IMG/VR virus record: IMGVR_UViG_3300034170_000039
Coordinates: 1-53,127 of that record
Source: a virus
Lineage: Duplodnaviria; Caudoviricetes
Strand: one strand, 5' to 3'
Length of the DNA stretch: 53,127 bases
Below are positions 2,866 to 53,047 of the stretch, piece by piece. The position numbers were made by a program, and so were the translations under genes. How positions within the stretch are numbered: position 1 is the first letter of the stretch; the number at the start of each line of letters is the position of its first letter. The notes below the pieces were generated by a model. That model was not told the origin of the DNA. It saw only the letters and a program-made list of their open reading frames with translations, and ran no database searches.

Positions 2866-3237
2866 TTAAGCAGGGACTTGCGGCCAATCAATTGTTGCGG
2901 GAAAGCCTGTCTGGCTTGAGACTCGATTAACATCGACCCGGTATTGCTTCCAAAGTTTAAGGTTTGCTTTGTCGGCATCGGTAGCGCTGTCGAGGTCTAT
3001 CGCGTCTTGCAGCGGAGCAATACGCAATGCAGCAGTTGTAAGCAGTGAGTCGCGCTGCATGTTGGCTACAATAATTGCATCAGCTGGAAGTAAAGCATTC
3101 TCAGAAGACGGCTGTGTTTTCGAATATGTCTCTGTGTTTGGATCTGGAAATAATTTTGACTCATCATTTGGGTCGGCTTCTGGGCCATCTACCATTCTCC
3201 AGCTAGACCCATTTTTCATTACTGCATAACCACTCAT
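2866..3237 (-). CDS. Tail fibre assembly chaperone
   Basis: IAPLQDAIDL...LKLWKQYRVDVNRV...IDWPQVP C-terminal motif. Confidence 0.88.
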   Translation of the reverse strand: MSGYAVMKNGSSWRMVDGPEADPNDESKLFPDPNTETYSKTQPSSENALLPADAIIVANMQRDSLLTTAALRIAPLQDAIDLDSATDADKANLKLWKQYRVDVNRVSSQTGFPATIDWPQVPA

Positions 3238-46799: not shown

Positions 46800-48896
46800 A
46801 TGTCCGCACAACAGAAGAAACACCCATTCGATTTCAAAACCCAATACGGACTCGGCTTCAACCCTCAGGACGATGAGATCGTTGTCGACTTCTTCTGTGG
46901 CGGTGGCGGCGCCGGTACCGGCCTGGAAATTGGACTTGGTCGCGCTGTAAACGTAGCCAAGAACCACAGCCCGCAAGCCATCAGCATGCACACCGTGAAC
47001 CACCCAGGTGCCCAGCACTTCACCACCGACGTGTTCGAGGGTGACCCGGACACCGAGTGCGGCGGCAAGGCAGTCGGCTGGTTCCATATGTCACCGGACT
47101 GCACGCATCACAGCCAGGCGGCCGGCGGCCAACCGCGCAAGCGCGAGATCCGCAACCTGTCGTGGATCGGCTTGAAGTGGGGAGGCAAGAAGCGGCCCCG
47201 GGTGATCAGCCTGGAGAACGTGAAGCAGATCCTGCAGTGGGGCCGGCTGATTGCCAAGCGCGACAAGGCCACCGGCCGCGTGGTGACCCTTGATCAGATT
47301 CCGCACCCAAGCAAGAAGGGAGCGACCACCAACCGAGTGGCATCGCCAGGCGAACAGGTGCCGGTTTCCAACCAGTTCTTGGTGCCTGACCCGAAGCAGC
47401 GCGGCCGCACCTGGCGCCGCTTCGTGGCTCTGCTGGAAGGCATGGGTTACGTGGTTGAGTGGAAGGTGATCAAGGCCTGCGACTTCGGCGCGCCGACCAG
47501 CCGGGAACGCCTGTTCATGATCGCCCGGTGCGATGGACAACCGATCGTGTGGCCAGAAGCGACCCACGCAAAGAACCCATCCAAGGGTCAGCAGAAGTGG
47601 AAAACAGCCGCTGACTGCATCGATTTCAGCGACCTGGGCAAAAGCATCTTCGGCCGCAAGAAGGACCTGGCCCCGGCCACCCTGCGCCGCGTTGCCAAGG
47701 GCATGAAGAAGTTCGTTATCGACAGCGCGGCGCCATTCATTGTCCCAATTGCCAACTGGTCCGGCGAGGCAGTGCAGTCAGCCGAAGAGCCCCTGCGCAC
47801 GATCACCTCCTACCCAAAGGGCGGCGCCTTCTCGGTGGTCAGCCCGATAATTGCACCGGCAACACACCAGGGCAGCGACCGTATCAATGACCCACTCGAC
47901 CCGCTGCCGACGGTGACTTGCGCTAACCGCGGCGAGCTGACGCTGATAAGCCCCACTTTGATTCAGTCAGGCTATGGCGAGCGCGCAGGGCAAGAGCCAC
48001 GGGTTCCGGGCTTGGATCAGCCACTCGGCACAGTTGTCGCCGGCGGTGTGAAGCACGCACTGGCTTCGGCCTGCATCGTCCAGGCCGGGCACGGCGAAGG
48101 TTCCGGCGCAAACAAACGGCGCTCCCACGGGGTGAACGATATATGCGGGCCGATCGGCACCGTTACAGCCAGCGGCGGCGGCCAGTCCATCAGCACGGCG
48201 GTGATGATTCAGGCCAACGGCGGATTCAACACCACCCATGCCAAGGACATCCGCGAGCCGATGACCACGGTGACCAACACCGGCAGCCAGCAGCAGTTGG
48301 CGGTGGCGAACCTGATCCACTTGCGCGGCAACTGTGATGCACGCGACTTGAATGACCCGCTGCACACCGTCAGCGCCGGCGGCCAACACCACGGGTTGGT
48401 CAGCGCATTCATGGAGCGGGCATTCGGCGGCAGTGTTGGCCAGGGCCTGGAAGATCCGGCACCGACCATCACCGCCGGTGGCGGCGGCAAGAGCTCGCTG
48501 GTGTCGCTCACCTTGTCGCCTGAACACGAAGCCGGTGCCCTGCGGGTCGCTGCGTTCCTGATCAGCTACTACGGCACCGAGAACACAAGCGCCTGTGACG
48601 CGCCAGCACCGACCATCACCACCAAGGACCGCCTCGCAATGGTCACCGTAATGGTGAAAGGCACGCCATACGTGATCGTCGACATCTGCCTGCGGATGCT
48701 GAAACCCACGGAGCTGTACAAGGCCCAGGGCTTCCCGGCCGACTACATCATCAGCCACGGCGCCGACGGCAAGCCGTTCACCAAGACCCAGCAGGTGCAT
48801 ATGTGCGGCAACAGCGTCAGCCCGCCGCCGATGGCCGCGCTGGCCAGGGCCAACGACCCTTGGCGAGCCGAACAACGCCAAGCCCGCGCCGCATAA
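46800..48896 (+). CDS. DNA cytosine-5 methyltransferase
   Basis: DFFCGGGG, SPDC, LENV, RERLF, CGNSV; long repetitive variable region. Confidence 0.93.
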   Translation: MSAQQKKHPFDFKTQYGLGFNPQDDEIVVDFFCGGGGAGTGLEIGLGRAVNVAKNHSPQAISMHTVNHPGAQHFTTDVFEGDPDTECGGKAVGWFHMSPDCTHHSQAAGGQPRKREIRNLSWIGLKWGGKKRPRVISLENVKQILQWGRLIAKRDKATGRVVTLDQIPHPSKKGATTNRVASPGEQVPVSNQFLVPDPKQRGRTWRRFVALLEGMGYVVEWKVIKACDFGAPTSRERLFMIARCDGQPIVWPEATHAKNPSKGQQKWKTAADCIDFSDLGKSIFGRKKDLAPATLRRVAKGMKKFVIDSAAPFIVPIANWSGEAVQSAEEPLRTITSYPKGGAFSVVSPIIAPATHQGSDRINDPLDPLPTVTCANRGELTLISPTLIQSGYGERAGQEPRVPGLDQPLGTVVAGGVKHALASACIVQAGHGEGSGANKRRSHGVNDICGPIGTVTASGGGQSISTAVMIQANGGFNTTHAKDIREPMTTVTNTGSQQQLAVANLIHLRGNCDARDLNDPLHTVSAGGQHHGLVSAFMERAFGGSVGQGLEDPAPTITAGGGGKSSLVSLTLSPEHEAGALRVAAFLISYYGTENTSACDAPAPTITTKDRLAMVTVMVKGTPYVIVDICLRMLKPTELYKAQGFPADYIISHGADGKPFTKTQQVHMCGNSVSPPPMAALARANDPWRAEQRQARAA

Positions 48897-48939
48897 CTCC
48901 CCACTCCACCGCCCGGGCATGGCCCGGCAAGGACTCCCC

Positions 48940-49587
48940 ATGCCTACAGAAAACAAACCGGCTGATCCAAAGCGAACCGGCCTGTCACAAGGCTGGAATC
49001 TGACACGCAAGCATGACGGCTTTGTCGTGGGCCACCAGTCTGTGGCATATCCGCCTGAAGAAAAGGCGATTGAGCGTGCCGAACGTGACGGCTATGTGTG
49101 GGTGCCGTTCCTCGTGCCAGCCGCCCAGCCCGAGGGCGAGCCGGTGGCACATATGCCGGTTGAACGCTGCTACGACGTTCGGGCAAAGATGATCATTGCC
49201 TTCAACGAGGCCAAGAAGGCTGGCGGCGATTTGGATGATGCGCTTGATGCTGCATACAAATCTGCCTTGCGCTATTCGCCAAACCCAATGAACGCAGAGC
49301 AGTCCGCACCGGTAGAGGTGGTGCCCGATGGCTACTGCATCATGCCCCGCCAACTTACCGCTGAGAATGGCGCCAAAGCCTTGCTGCTCGGCGAGTTCAA
49401 GCTGCTGGCCACCAAAGAATGCCCTGAATGCTGCGAGCTTGAAGAGCCAACCGAAGGTTGCTCAATGTGCGACGGTGAAGGCGAGTACGGGCAGAAACAC
49501 ACCATCCCGTGGGATCAGATCAAGTTCATCTACAGCAAGGCAGTAGAGGGCCTGGCCGTGAAGGCCGAGCCAGCCAAATCCCGATAG
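48940..49587 (+). CDS. Hypothetical protein with C-terminal Zn finger
   Basis: AAGGA RBS; CPEC...CSMC. Confidence 0.7.
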   Translation: MPTENKPADPKRTGLSQGWNLTRKHDGFVVGHQSVAYPPEEKAIERAERDGYVWVPFLVPAAQPEGEPVAHMPVERCYDVRAKMIIAFNEAKKAGGDLDDALDAAYKSALRYSPNPMNAEQSAPVEVVPDGYCIMPRQLTAENGAKALLLGEFKLLATKECPECCELEEPTEGCSMCDGEGEYGQKHTIPWDQIKFIYSKAVEGLAVKAEPAKSR

Positions 49588-49637
49588 GAGTACATCCGTA
49601 CTCCACCCGCAAAACCTGTAACCCCTTCCCCCTTCAA

Positions 49638-49875
49638 AGTCAGCCGCTATAGCGGCTAGCTACATATGGAATGTCAGTTCTTCGGCTTCTGAGAGATCCC
49701 AATGACCATAAAGACGATACCGGGGATCCAGATACCAGGGATCGAGGTGGCCAGGCCCACGGCTAGAAATGACGCGCCCACAATGAACATTGGTCGTTTG
49801 ATTGTGTTTTCCATAACTCACACCCTCCATTAAGAATTTTTCACATTTAACCATAGAGTCAGCCGCTATAGCGGC
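49638..49875. repeat. 19-bp direct repeats AGTCAGCCGCTATAGCGGC flanking a 200-bp insert
   Basis: Exact copies at 49638..49656 and 49857..49875. Confidence 0.9.
49674..49814 (-). CDS. 46-aa membrane micropeptide
   Basis: GGAGG RBS; MENTIKRPMFIVGASFLAVGLATSIPGIWIPGIVFMVIGISQKPKN. Confidence 0.7.
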   Translation of the reverse strand: MENTIKRPMFIVGASFLAVGLATSIPGIWIPGIVFMVIGISQKPKN

Positions 49876-49887
49876 AAGGACGAAGTC

Positions 49888-50277
49888 ATGCCTGAAGAAA
49901 ACAAACACGACCTGGCTGCAGCTGATCGCAAGCTACTCATTCAGGCCGCGCACTCCGCCCGCATCGATATCGAACCGTGCACCTGCAGCGATCCTAAGTG
50001 GCCTTTCCGGCTGGCTCGCAAGTCCGGTGTCCGTGGACACTGGAACCCGCTCATCAACGACGGGGATGCGCTGCGCTTGGCGGTAGTCATGGGCCGCATG
50101 GAGCGCCTGGGCGTGGCCATCCACATCGTTGAGCCGTTCGACGGCGACACCGGACCTTACACCTACGTGGACGCTGAGCGTTTCGGTGAGCACACCATGT
50201 ACCACCACGCCGATCCGTTCGGGGCGACTCGCCGCGCGATCGTCGAAGCCGCAGCTGAAATCGGGAGACGTTCATGA
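49888..50277 (+). CDS. Phage hypothetical protein (paralog 2)
   Basis: WNPLINDGDALRLAV...RRAIVEAAAEIG. Confidence 0.75.
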   Translation: MPEENKHDLAAADRKLLIQAAHSARIDIEPCTCSDPKWPFRLARKSGVRGHWNPLINDGDALRLAVVMGRMERLGVAIHIVEPFDGDTGPYTYVDAERFGEHTMYHHADPFGATRRAIVEAAAEIGRRS

Positions 50278-50888
50278 CGGTAATCAAAGAACGCCCCATC
50301 CTGTTCTCGGCGCCGATGGTGCGCGCCATCCTGGAAGGCCGGAGGACGGTCACGCGGCGGGCGGTGAAGATTCAGCCACGCTCGAAAGCCGATATCGGCA
50401 GCTATGGCCTGGGCCAGCCCTTCATTCGAAACCCTGATGTGGCGAAGCCTAACCCGGAGTGCCCCTATGGTCGGCCCGGCGACCGGCTGTGGGTGCGCGA
50501 GACCTGGGCCCGTGTCGGCAATGACGATCCGGGCTATCTGACCTTCGGCGCCACCTACCCTTCCTGTCTTCCGCCAGGACTGGAAAACATTCCGCCTGCC
50601 AGCCAGATCCGCTGGAAGCCAAGCATCCACATGTTCCGCCGCGACAGCCGCATCCTGCTGGAGATCACCGACGTGCGCGTCGAGCGGTTGCAGGACATCA
50701 CCTACGAGCAGGCCGCAGCCGAAGGGATTCACCGAGGCCCGCTACGTGAGTGGTGCGCGAGCGACGAAGGTGGTAACTGCCACAAATACCCGGTTCCAGC
50801 ATTCCGCGACTTGTGGCAATCCGTCGGCGGCAACTGGGACGCCAACCCGTGGGTCTGGGTGGTTGAGTTCAAGCGGGTGACGCCATGA
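50274..50888 (+). CDS. ASCH/PUA-like phage protein
   Basis: ERPILFSAPMVRAILEGRRTVTRR, GDRLWVRE, VERLQDI, NPWVWVVEF. Confidence 0.75.
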   Translation: MTVIKERPILFSAPMVRAILEGRRTVTRRAVKIQPRSKADIGSYGLGQPFIRNPDVAKPNPECPYGRPGDRLWVRETWARVGNDDPGYLTFGATYPSCLPPGLENIPPASQIRWKPSIHMFRRDSRILLEITDVRVERLQDITYEQAAAEGIHRGPLREWCASDEGGNCHKYPVPAFRDLWQSVGGNWDANPWVWVVEFKRVTP

Positions 50889-50937
50889 TCGCCACCCTCT
50901 GGTTCGCCTACGTCTTCATCTACAAAGAGGCCAGGCC

Positions 50938-51261
50938 ATGACAGACCATGAATTGTTGCGGATATCTGCCAAGGCCATGGGCTTCGAGCTGGAATACAGG
51001 CACGGAAGCGATGCCTTCTACTACGACGATCCAGAATCCGGCCGTGAGCAATGGCAGCCACTCAGTGATGATGCCCAGGCCATGCGCCTGGCGGTAGACC
51101 TTCAGCTCAGCATCCTCTGGCTCACCAACCTGCAGTACGTGATGGTCGAGCGTCGCGGCTTCGGGGAGAACATCGGCTGGACCGACGACGCGGATCGAGG
51201 TGGCGCGCTCCGCCAGGCAATCACAGTCGTAGCAGCGCAAATCGGCAGCACGCTTCCCTAA
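50938..51261 (+). CDS. Phage hypothetical protein (paralog 3)
   Basis: WQPLSDDAQAMRLAV...RQAITVVAAQIG. Confidence 0.75.
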   Translation: MTDHELLRISAKAMGFELEYRHGSDAFYYDDPESGREQWQPLSDDAQAMRLAVDLQLSILWLTNLQYVMVERRGFGENIGWTDDADRGGALRQAITVVAAQIGSTLP

Positions 51262-51310
51262 CCCCAATCCCCCTACATGCCTGCCGGTGAGCGGCGGGCG
51301 AGGTATTCCT

Positions 51311-51556
51311 ATGTCCATAGAAAATATGCCAGTCATGCGCGGGAAGAAAATCAAGTCGATCCCGATGCATTTACTTGCGCCATACAAAGAGCAGGCCCAG
51401 CGCAATCACAGCCAATCCTTGCAGCGTCTCGCCGAGCGCGGCGGCATGGATTCAACCGAGATCCTAGGCATGGTTCGTGGGATTGGGTGGAGTCAGCTTG
51501 TAGTTCGGCCGGATGACGAGGTCGAATTGATTAAGTGGGTTGAAAGTAAATCCTAA
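51311..51556 (+). CDS. Hypothetical protein
   Basis: GAGG RBS; QAQRNHSQSLQRLAERGG motif. Confidence 0.7.
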   Translation: MSIENMPVMRGKKIKSIPMHLLAPYKEQAQRNHSQSLQRLAERGGMDSTEILGMVRGIGWSQLVVRPDDEVELIKWVESKS

Positions 51557-51638
51557 CCACCTTCTGCCGCCCAGCGCGGCAAGGACACTAAATGACCATC
51601 AATTCAGCACGGCCCGGAGTGGGCTGCGGGAGCGAGCC

Positions 51639-51926
51639 ATGAGCGGACCAGTCAGATACAAGACCGTCGAACAATTCTCGCGAGAGTCTGGCTATACACC
51701 GGATGCCATCCGAACCAAAATCCGTGACGGCATTTGGCCGAAGCACGCCGTCTGGAAGAAAGCGCCGGACGGTCGGGTACTTATAGATGTTGAGGGGTAT
51801 TACTCATGGGTAGAGATGGGGGAGGCGTCCGCGCCGCGTCTGCAAGTAGTATCGAGATCACATTCCAATACCAGGGCGTCCGGTGCCGCGAGAGGGTCCA
51901 ACTCAAGCCCACCACCGCTAACCTGA
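51639..51926 (+). CDS. xis: Excisionase
   Basis: YKTVEQFSRESGYTPDAIRTKIRDGIW...PDGRVLIDVEGY; overlaps int start. Confidence 0.82.
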   Translation: MSGPVRYKTVEQFSRESGYTPDAIRTKIRDGIWPKHAVWKKAPDGRVLIDVEGYYSWVEMGEASAPRLQVVSRSHSNTRASGAARGSNSSPPPLT

Positions 51927-53047
51927 AAAAGGCCGAGCTGCATAAGGCCGCAATTGAACACGCCATCCTCGGCGGCACATTTGATTACGCCAAGACATTC
52001 CCAAATTCAAAGAAGGCCCTGGCTTTCAAAACGCCGGAGGATCGGCAGAATCTGGGCGTGTATCTGCTTGAGTGGCTTGATAAGAAAAAGGCTCAGCTCA
52101 AATCCAGCACGGCCGAGCACTACCGGGAGATGATCGCCGGGCGGCTGATACCGATGTTTGGCCACCTTTCATTGGGAGAGCTTTCCCGGAAGCACGTCAG
52201 GGACAGGCTCTCGCAGTACAAGGTTGGCAACAAGACGATGACCAACCTGCAGAGCTGCTTGAGGTCATCTCTTGATGATGCGGTAGAAGACGAGATCTTG
52301 GAGATCAACCCGATGGTCGGGTGGAACTACAAAAACCGGGAAGAGCTCAAGGAGGACGATGATGTCGATCCGTTCACCGTCGAAGAACAGGAAGCTCTTC
52401 TGGCTGCGACACCACGTGATCAGCGCGCGCAGATGATCTTCTCGTTCTGGACAGGCCTTCGCCCGAGCGAGCTTATTGCTTTGGAGTGGGGGGATGTCGA
52501 TTGGATTGGCGGAGCTGTTCGCATTGTTCGCGCCAAAACGCGAGCGGCGAATTCGCCGGAGACACCGAAAACCGCAAGCGGCCGTCGGACGGTGAAATTG
52601 TTGAAGCCTGCCCTGGATGCTCTGACGCAGCAGAAGGCTCTGACATTTTTGGCGGGGGGAAGGATATTTTTGAACCCGCATAGTGGCGAGCCATGGGAAG
52701 AGTCTGGGCGCATTAGAAAGCTGCTTTGGCTTCCCGCTATGAAGAAGTCAGGCGTCCGCTACCGTAGGCCGTACCAAACTCGCCATACCTACGCGTCAAT
52801 GATGCTTTCTGCCGGAGAGCATCCGATGTGGGTGGCGAGCCAGATGGGGCACAAAGATTGGACCATGATCGCAAGGATTTATGGTCGCTGGATGCCATCG
52901 GCTGACACCGGGGCGGGCAGCAAGGCAGAGGCTCTTTTCGGGGGTAATGCCAAGGTTATGACAACATCGCCTCTACAGGCCGCAATTTACGCGACCGAAA
53001 CCAAGGATACTAAAGTGGCATCTAATGTCACTGGCTGTTACCACTGA
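51806..53047 (+). CDS. int: Tyrosine integrase with arm-binding domain
   Basis: TGLRPSEL, YQTRHTYAS, QMGH, IYGRW catalytic motifs. Confidence 0.96.
   Translation: MGRDGGGVRAASASSIEITFQYQGVRCRERVQLKPTTANLKKAELHKAAIEHAILGGTFDYAKTFPNSKKALAFKTPEDRQNLGVYLLEWLDKKKAQLKSSTAEHYREMIAGRLIPMFGHLSLGELSRKHVRDRLSQYKVGNKTMTNLQSCLRSSLDDAVEDEILEINPMVGWNYKNREELKEDDDVDPFTVEEQEALLAATPRDQRAQMIFSFWTGLRPSELIALEWGDVDWIGGAVRIVRAKTRAANSPETPKTASGRRTVKLLKPALDALTQQKALTFLAGGRIFLNPHSGEPWEESGRIRKLLWLPAMKKSGVRYRRPYQTRHTYASMMLSAGEHPMWVASQMGHKDWTMIARIYGRWMPSADTGAGSKAEALFGGNAKVMTTSPLQAAIYATETKDTKVASNVTGCYH
53001..53013 (+). repeat. att core, right copy (CCAAGGATACTAA)
   Basis: Exact repeat of 105..117, inside the 3' end of int. 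Confidence 0.85.

Follow-up and report, generated by a model that had tools for sequence, protein, structure and literature searches.

Conserved boundary or 'linker' sequences of lambdoid phages have been proposed as exchange points between modules. In the relevant sections of PMC3594210, morons are defined as DNA that is missing at the same place in related phages, deviates from neighbouring genes in GC content, has a promoter and a terminator of its own and is expressed from the repressed prophage, and gp15 of the lambdoid phage HK97 is presented as a small inner-membrane prophage protein. In the sections of PMC3203893 on Cluster K mycobacteriophages, the SAS/ESAS elements are described as a conserved motif located right before start codons and present in many copies per genome. 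The subject of this report is a 200-bp cassette at positions 49657-49856 of viral record IMGVR_UViG_3300034170_000039 (Duplodnaviria; Caudoviricetes). The cassette encodes a 46-residue peptide on the minus strand and is bracketed by two copies of a 19-bp repeat. The whole 53,127-bp record, referred to as the window, has an estimated completeness of 97% and its closest DNA matches are Pseudomonas phages. We put the probability at about 0.7 that the cassette is a small moron moving by recombination at a shared junction module and lying distally in the plus-strand, integrase-directed operon of a temperate Pseudomonas phage.

Compared with the lambdoid morons exemplified by HK97 gene 15 in those sections of PMC3594210, the cassette likewise consists of extra DNA relative to its relatives, differs in GC content from its surroundings and holds one small gene. 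Its product resembles gp15 in being a small inner-membrane protein (here by prediction) with presumed expression from the prophage. The cassette differs in its much smaller size (200 bp), in lying antisense to an early operon rather than within the late operon, in having no recognisable promoter or terminator, and in being bounded by a duplicated and widely shared module, which makes it portable. The peptide has no sequence relation to gp15/YebO.

The junction module itself resembles the lambdoid linkers as a short conserved intergenic stretch between unrelated genes, at which homology begins or ends. Unlike the linkers, it is one specific sequence of ~60 bp with a perfect palindrome, a Shine-Dalgarno (SD) sequence and first codons; it is single-copy per genome, occurs in at least 120 contigs and is duplicated around cargo. 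With the SAS/ESAS elements, as described in PMC3203893 for Cluster K, the module shares its place directly upstream of the starts of unrelated genes, an adjacent inverted repeat and an unknown function. It differs from them in its unrelated sequence and in occurring once per genome, or twice with a cassette; the window has two copies only because of the insert.

Structure of the cassette

The cassette and the module around it comprise the following features.

49622..49637, plus strand: C-rich tract followed by TTCAA, the upstream arm of the module (consensus cCCCTCCCCCTTCAA), found beside the left repeat only
49638..49656, no strand assigned: left 19-bp repeat, AGTCAGCCGCTATAGCGGC, with the palindrome at 49643-49656
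49657..49856, minus strand: cargo, comprising an open reading frame (ORF), its leader and a conserved upstream motif; GC 0.46
49674..49814, minus strand: gene of a predicted two-helix membrane peptide of 46 aa, MENTIKRPMFIVGASFLAVGLATSIPGIWIPGIVFMVIGISQKPKN, with Lys/Arg at both ends
49824..49828, minus strand: SD sequence GGAGG, 9 nt before the ATG
49845..49853, minus strand: conserved motif TGGTTAAAT of the leader or promoter region, overlapping TATGGT at 49850-49855; role putative
49857..49875, no strand assigned: right 19-bp repeat, abutting the 5′ control region of the minus-strand gene and the SD sequence of the plus-strand gene
49876..49900, plus strand: downstream arm of the module, consisting of AAGGACGAAGTC (SD) and ATGCCTGAAGAAA (start and first codons of gene 49888-50277); consensus AAGGACgAagTcatgCctgaA.AAA

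An earlier note on this DNA had claimed two exact 19-bp repeats, each with a palindrome, around 200 bp of lower-GC DNA, and both parts of the claim were confirmed. The repeat extends to 22 nt with one mismatch (49638-49659 and 49857-49878), and inside both copies lies the perfect 14-bp palindrome GCCGCTATAGCGGC (49643-49656 and 49862-49875). Just two copies of the repeat and its palindrome are present in the record. At 0.46, the GC content of the 200 bp between them is below that of the window (0.58) and of the flanks (0.58-0.64). The added DNA amounts to 219 bp, made up of the 200-bp cargo and the second 19-bp copy of the core. By simple counting, chance falls far short of explaining an exact 19-mer that recurs at a distance of 219 bp. 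In a shuffle test, which is a weak one here, two 14-mers with at most two mismatches were observed against a mean of 0.32 expected, and 5 of 100 shuffles gave two or more. The biological explanation of the duplicated 19-mer is its junction-module context, described below.

Miniature inverted-repeat transposable elements (MITEs) and ultra-small phage mobile elements of the MPME-like kind have terminal inverted repeats and occur in several copies per genome. A MITE or transposon reading of the cassette was rejected: terminal inverted repeats are absent and the best end-to-end score was reached by 1044 of 2000 shuffles. The ends of the cargo are not conserved in two diverged cassettes (loci L136 and L139), and, unlike a multi-copy MITE, the 53-kb record has one flanked unit, because it holds just two palindromes. 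MPME-type elements are mentioned in a section of PMC3203893.

The junction module and its empty sites

The repeat AGTCAGCCGCTATAGCGGC is the core of an intergenic module of ~60 bp, in which a C-rich tract, the 14-bp palindrome, an SD sequence and ATGCCTGAAGAAA follow one another. Searching the viral collection for the exact 19-mer yielded at least 121 contig stretches; one contig being counted as two loci, at least 120 loci are left. In at least 120 Pseudomonas phage contigs the module is single-copy and lies between unrelated genes. Following orientation of the loci, sequences were unrelated beyond ~60 bp, the shared part consisting of cCCCTCCCCCTTCAA, the core and AAGGACgAagTcatgCctgaA.AAA. 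Among the matches listed, the canonical upstream arm was found in 108 of 120 distinct contexts, and an AAGGA-type arm followed by a start codon in 114 of 120. The reading frames after the module are very diverse, the commonest beginning with MPEE. By blastn against all loci, a typical single-copy locus matches the window just at 49616-49659 and 49857-49901. In GenBank, single-copy modules are located between different genes in phiAH14a, PseuP_222, SC_8_H2H8_2017 and an unverified fecal contig.

Scanning with the arms only, the 19 core positions being left free, gave an exact core in 110 of 120 hits. Of the ten core variants, most differ by a single substitution, and compensatory pairs are absent; as far as these alignments go, there is no covariation evidence for or against selection on RNA structure at the palindrome.

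Insertion into the junction module with duplication of its core, as the earlier note had envisaged, is borne out by the exact core on both sides of the cargo and the single copy in relatives. Empty alleles with a single repeat, which the earlier note had named as a check of its own reading, are abundant (L078, L034, contigs of sequencing runs X7 and X2, and at least 100 other loci). Locus L078 has one module; in common with the window it has the region of the upstream hairpin (90% over 49576-49659) and all of the downstream gene, 49888..50277 (91.9% over 49857-50277), which is also present in a contig of run X7. Locus L034, again with one module, shares the 3′ part of the upstream gene, 48919..49587 (88% over 49324-49659, blastn). 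In a contig of run X7 the sequence passes from 49631 via TTCAA to 49857, and in a contig of run X2 it passes from 49656 to 49875. Both flanking genes of the window were found together in no single locus.

The cassette was also found in surroundings that are unrelated to the window at the DNA level (L129, L130, L132, L263 and L264). Loci L129 and L130 are 98.5% identical to the window over 49616-49880, plus the right arm, and have unrelated flanks. Locus L132 matches the window only over 49619-49900; here and in L263 the cassette has an in-frame deletion of 15 bp. The cassette is also carried by L264. For the diverged cassettes of L136 (80% protein identity) and L139 (61%, left copy degenerate), the match to the window is confined to ~49626-49905; a palindrome is present on each side, with different left junctions. 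Loci L135 and L137 keep the right palindrome only, L131 only a degenerate right copy, and L138 none.

Other cargo at the same site

Alternative cargo, foreseen in the earlier note, was found at the same site in the form of a second cassette family, the inserts of L068 and L141, and stacked arrays. Members of the second family (L028, L129, L130, L131, L135 and L140) have a conserved right end, ACGATACCTCTCCCCTCTATGAATTTGATA, followed by the palindrome. Their ORF, listed as 85 aa and probably ~76 aa long from a GTG start, runs against the direction of the operon, and its 5′ end abuts the palindrome. In L129, L130 and L264, both kinds of cassette are arranged in tandem and separated by three palindromes. 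Locus L068 contains two complete module copies 648 bp apart, the cargo being an opposite-strand ORF of 88 aa and a truncated plus-strand gene stub, and in L141 a plus-strand gene is located between two palindromes. A backward ORF is present in most of these other cargos.

Allowing one mismatch, two or more palindromes were found in 12 of the 133 exact-19-mer loci and a single copy in 121. An unbiased 19-mer scan gave two or more palindromes in 5 of 120 loci (L008, L028, L030, L060 and L068), which is an undercount because 41 loci have flanks of 300 bp only. Cargo junctions are located 0-6 bp from the palindrome edges, at no single fixed position.

Long, low-GC ORFs on the opposite strand are present directly upstream of the single-copy module in L004 (PseuP_222), L018, L045, L052, L059 and L071; in PseuP_222 (L004, 1760-2425) the backward ORF is an annotated hypothetical protein of 221 aa. 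The module seems to be a general hot spot for backward-facing additions, beyond micro-cassettes. An automatic screen for backward ORFs beside the module was too noisy, the C-tract being read as a reverse SD sequence, and no count from it was used.

The peptide gene

The minus-strand ORF at 49674..49814 (46 aa) and its GGAGG ribosome-binding site are present as claimed in the earlier note, and comparison of homologs shows it to be a genuine gene maintained by purifying selection. A protein search returned nine relatives, eight of them with E ≤ 4e-13 and 63-100% identity. All are 46 aa long save one 41-aa form with a deletion of five residues, and entries named from P. synxantha and P. antarctica are included. 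Further homologs were found in six viral and five genome loci.

Selection was analysed on seven DNA homologs (the window, L131 and L135-L139; 21 pairs), across which the length of 46 aa is kept from 61% to 100% identity. Left out were L129 and L130, whose protein is identical, L132, which has a deletion, and L133 and L134, whose lengths differ. The pairwise ratio of non-synonymous to synonymous substitution rates (dN/dS) was 0.04-0.29 where defined, several pairs being saturated at synonymous sites. The pooled ratio of non-synonymous to synonymous changes per site (pN/pS) was 0.241 in the frame of the ORF, the lowest of the six frames (others 0.41, 1.10, 1.11, 1.61 and 2.50). A plus-strand ORF of 43 aa (49702-49833) was rejected as coding: its pN/pS of 0.41 is worse than that of the minus-strand frame, and its start is lost in L136. 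The antisense frame sharing wobble positions is open in most homologs.

AlphaFold2, using an alignment of 11 rows, predicted a two-helix membrane hairpin with helices at residues 2-23 and 26-41 (mean predicted local distance difference test score 81; predicted template modelling score 0.54). The peptide would be a helical hairpin in the inner membrane, with both termini in the cytoplasm as suggested by the Lys/Arg residues at both ends.

Matches of the peptide in Pfam were sub-threshold only (best DUF3040, E 0.084), and neither peptide nor cargo had a match in PHROGs, PADLOC or Rfam. No match was obtained with tblastn against GenBank phages, and Foldseek of the peptide model against BFVD gave nothing at E ≤ 0.001; the best score in the ESM Atlas, 0.80, is below the useful range. 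A profile search gave 81 representative clusters at E ≤ 0.001 and eight at E ≤ 1e-10. When 22 of these 81 distant matches were scanned against Pfam, none was above the curated cut-off; the distant matches may reflect shared hydrophobic composition.

Expression signals

The SD sequence of the peptide gene is conserved as (A)GGAGG or GGGAGG in L129-L136 and L139. In the upstream alignment, TGGTTAAAT is identical in the window, L129, L131, L135, L136 and L139, has one-base variants in L132, L137 and L134, and differs at three positions in L133 (TGAATTAAT). On the strand of the ORF the conserved order is hairpin, TGGTTAAAT, AATTCTTAAxGGAGG and ATG. The exact palindrome is kept at the 5′ side of the ORF in the window, L129, L130, L132, L135, L136, L137 and L139.

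The signals that the earlier note had proposed for transcription fared less well. The letters of the promoter, TTGCCG (49872-49877) and TATGGT (49850-49855) at a spacing of 16, are present and agree with the consensus at 8 of 12 positions, but the TTG of the -35 box is lost in L131, L135 and L137. The left palindrome, put forward as a terminator, folds as a hairpin but has no U-tract (~4 T after it on the minus strand) and is absent in the same three loci. The description of the cassette as self-contained goes too far, since it has its upstream control region in common with the phage module.

In a peat metatranscriptome (run X1, Logan), a 408-bp contig covers 49410-49817 with 0 differences and gives no strand, start or level. 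No claim of expression is drawn from it, as the contig is unstranded and RNA libraries can contain DNA.

Movement of the cassette

The cassette carries two overlapping homology arms, since its left copy keeps the C-tract and core and its right copy the core, SD sequence and start. In a naive module these would serve as arms of ~41 and ~45 bp with an overlap of 19 bp. By homologous or palindrome-palindrome recombination, the cassette could enter such a module, exchange its flanks, stack with other cassettes and be looped out again. The structure observed here would be produced by a double exchange, or by a single exchange of a looped-out circle within the palindrome; alternatively, a neighbouring cassette may have been lost from an array of the L129 type by palindrome-palindrome exchange. 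Every one of these routes would preserve the sequence context at the 3′ end of the upstream gene as well as that in which translation of the downstream gene starts. In the lysogen, minus-strand transcription would proceed from the TGGTTAAAT/palindrome region while the plus-strand operon is silent. The recombination model accounts for the arrays, the swapped flanks and the spread of the cassette, but neither for the first duplication nor for the exactness of the palindrome amid divergence.

The following observations weigh against a portable moron of this kind. Three different left junctions are found (the window, L136 and L139), and L131, L135 and L137 are without a left palindrome; as origins of the duplication, a single old event with later divergence and repeated events are therefore inseparable. 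Both palindromes are exact even in L136, where the ORF is at 80% protein identity, which hints at a function or mechanism beyond plain homologous recombination. In L138 a homolog of the peptide gene (3001-3138, 80% identical) is not associated with a phage module: it is part of a chromosomal patch, where its neighbours are a META/DUF4377 gene on one side and an AT3-SGNH acyltransferase gene on the other, with an IS3-type transposase close by. As regards expression, the ORF is intact in L131, L135 and L137 despite their lost -35 box, no promoter-like site was reported on either strand between 49000 and 50500, neither palindrome was reported as terminator-like in the same interval, and the RNA-library data on the cassette consist of unstranded contigs only. 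Finally, the function of the peptide is conjecture, because it matches no family.

The most durable alternative, which we regard as unlikely, is dedicated capture of cassettes: the palindrome would be a recombination site, comparable to attI/attC or to a Campbell-type core, at which small circles, each with one palindrome and a promoter-proximal gene, move in and out through a recombinase of phage or host, building arrays. Every cargo is bounded by complete palindromes, with its junctions close to their edges, as capture would have it, but the positions of these junctions are not fixed. The two-cassette, three-palindrome arrays of L129, L130 and L264 agree with it as well; L068, however, duplicates the whole module, as unequal homologous exchange would. 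On reasoning, one crossover within the palindrome between a one-palindrome circle and a module would give the observed junctions; the circle or tandem junction had 0 matches in metagenome contigs, a weak result that covers exact matches in assembled contigs only. The palindrome, of 14 bp with 5-bp arms, is shorter than typical core sites of recombinases, and no recombinase travels with the cassettes. In favour of capture is also the exact palindrome in 110 of 120 arms-only hits. Capture is kept as a minority reading because the palindrome is exact amid divergence and two unrelated cargo families both have their 5′ end against it.

Integron attC sites are imperfect inverted repeats of tens of bases with unpaired bases, and integron cassettes are promoterless, are co-oriented with a common promoter, adjoin an integron integrase and attI and have a circular intermediate. 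Like integron cassettes, the units described here are small, hold single genes, have palindromic bounds, form arrays and share one docking site. Unlike attC, the element at their edges is a perfect 14-bp palindrome with asymmetric extended flanks, and the ORFs of both recurrent families and of L068 face against the operon. Further differences are the conserved leaders that the two recurrent families have of their own and the variable positions of the junctions. No integron integrase was identified, the sole recombinase seen nearby being the phage integrase ORF at 51806-53047. A phage 'micro-integron', in which a docking site captures promoter-bearing, backward-facing micro-cassettes, each with one GCCGCTATAGCGGC, by some recombination activity and so provides a slot for lysogen genes, is just as doubtful as dedicated capture. 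The hairpin module at 51279-51299 would then be a neighbouring slot of the same kind. If true, this would mean a plug-in slot for lysogen-expressed genes in temperate Pseudomonas phages.

Function of the peptide

By analogy with the small prophage membrane proteins HK97 gp15 and PfsE, a membrane-acting benefit to the lysogen is the most likely role of the peptide; it might keep other phages from entering or modulate a membrane complex. We would give an exclusion-type function one chance in three and a small regulator of some other kind, acting on a membrane complex, a similar chance; for a toxin the chance is about one in ten. PfsE, from Pseudomonas phage Pf4, is presented in the relevant part of PMC8764522 as a very small phage membrane protein that blocks superinfection. 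The peptide resembles PfsE, as presented there, in being very small, phage-encoded and predicted to reside in the Pseudomonas inner membrane. It has no detected sequence similarity to PfsE, and a partner of the PilC type is not known for it.

A type I toxin-antitoxin or addiction system, with a membrane-damaging peptide checked by antisense RNA (a dedicated small RNA or read-through of the operon), is less probable still than dedicated capture. Like type I toxins, the peptide is small and hydrophobic (46 aa, two predicted helices, charged ends) and encoded on a mobile element, and transcripts of the operon to which its gene is antisense would span that gene from end to end. An antitoxin RNA was not found: the scan of 49000-50500 gave no promoter-like site, on the plus or the minus strand, from which an antisense RNA could start, and Rfam gave no match. 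The leader in the 200-bp cargo is ~40 nt, short compared with long structured toxin leaders, and the predicted two-helix hairpin with conserved Pro/Gly motifs differs from single-helix toxins. Moreover, the plus-strand operon should be off in the lysogen, which would leave a toxin unchecked.

A chance ORF in non-functional DNA left by illegitimate recombination or by replication slippage at the hairpin would fit the scan that passed no promoter or terminator and the missing family match, but is very improbable given the 46-aa length kept at 61-100% identity in seven DNA homologs, the lowest pN/pS of the six frames (0.24), the conserved SD sequence and leader, and the eight representative clusters at E ≤ 1e-10 in the profile search.

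Our verdict on the cassette is a moron that is real, though small, and whose peptide gene is unannotated; its main interest is the shared module that makes it portable. If this holds, an unannotated family of 46-residue prophage membrane peptides under clear selection is added, together with a very small moron that is portable through two overlapping pieces of junction sequence serving as built-in homology arms. It would also bear on the old question of whether phage mosaicism arises via conserved linkers or by random joints only. The hyper-conserved 60-bp element is a possible neutral insertion site for engineering of these phages.

Further observations on the module and neighbouring genes

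The genes and signals adjoining the cassette and module are the following.

48919..49587, plus strand: upstream gene, 222 aa, no family; convergent with the peptide gene
49587..49604, plus strand: hairpin 1, GGAGTAC-ATCC-GTACTCC, beginning at the last base of the TAG stop codon of the upstream gene
49888..50277, plus strand: downstream gene, 129 aa, PHROG match phrog_5086 (function unassigned)
51540-51926, plus strand: excisionase, phrog_9668
51806-53047, plus strand: integrase-like ORF, adjoining the excisionase, ~2 kb from the cassette; the sole recombinase seen nearby

Hairpin 1 is an optional upstream extension of the module, present in about one quarter to one third of loci (e.g. L003, L022, L034, L035 and L084), and blastn matches of such loci begin at ~49572-49585. 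Its variants are mostly one-sided changes, with no covariation by eye. In the minimum-energy fold of L078 (1440-1560; z-score -4.0), CCUU of the C-tract pairs with AAGG of the SD sequence and lengthens the palindrome hairpin; this pairing is missing from the centroid structure. The right repeat copy of the window is without a C-tract partner for the SD sequence, and on this folding model the loss might change translation of the downstream gene.

The bare 14-mer occurs in 118 of 401 Pseudomonas genomes, a tally that includes G104 and G156, which are flagged as unpublished. As a genus-wide marker the palindrome was rejected: the bare 14-mer is not specific, because a reversed control palindrome looks about as common (per-genome columns, not totalled). 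In the metagenome contigs L262 and L265, the 14-mer is located within a GC-rich repeat unit of ~220-230 bp with inverted repeats similar to repetitive extragenic palindromic (REP) elements, unrelated to the module. The exact palindrome string was absent from the open-access papers searched, a search that did not extend to modules described in words.

A second junction module of the same layout was observed at 51262-51313, where a stop codon is followed by C-rich CCCCAATCCCCCTACAT, the hairpin GCCTGCCGGTGAGCGGCGGGC (51279-51299), GAGG and ATG. Its exact 21-mer was found in at least 120 viral contigs, once in each. In L020 and L141 this second module comes directly after the palindrome module, and from this back-to-back arrangement the genes at 49888-51261 are read as a variable slot between two conserved modules. 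The distant homologs of the peptide ORF in L133 and L134 adjoin a hairpin of the second-module type.

The plus-strand gene run extends from about position 36 kb to the end of the window, heading to the excisionase and the integrase-like ORF. The protein encoded at 46800-48896, two genes upstream of the module, contains a C-5 cytosine DNA methylase domain (PF00145, E 2.8e-23); its length of 698 aa is unusually great for the family. A 12-nt direct repeat, GCCTGAAGAAAA, forms a two-copy family, with one copy inside the upstream gene (49053-49064) and one at the start of the downstream gene (49890-49901); it is probably due to chance. Two phrog_5086 genes (49888-50277 and 50938-51261) bracket a phrog_874 gene (50274-50888), and the pair looks like a local duplication or repeated acquisition.

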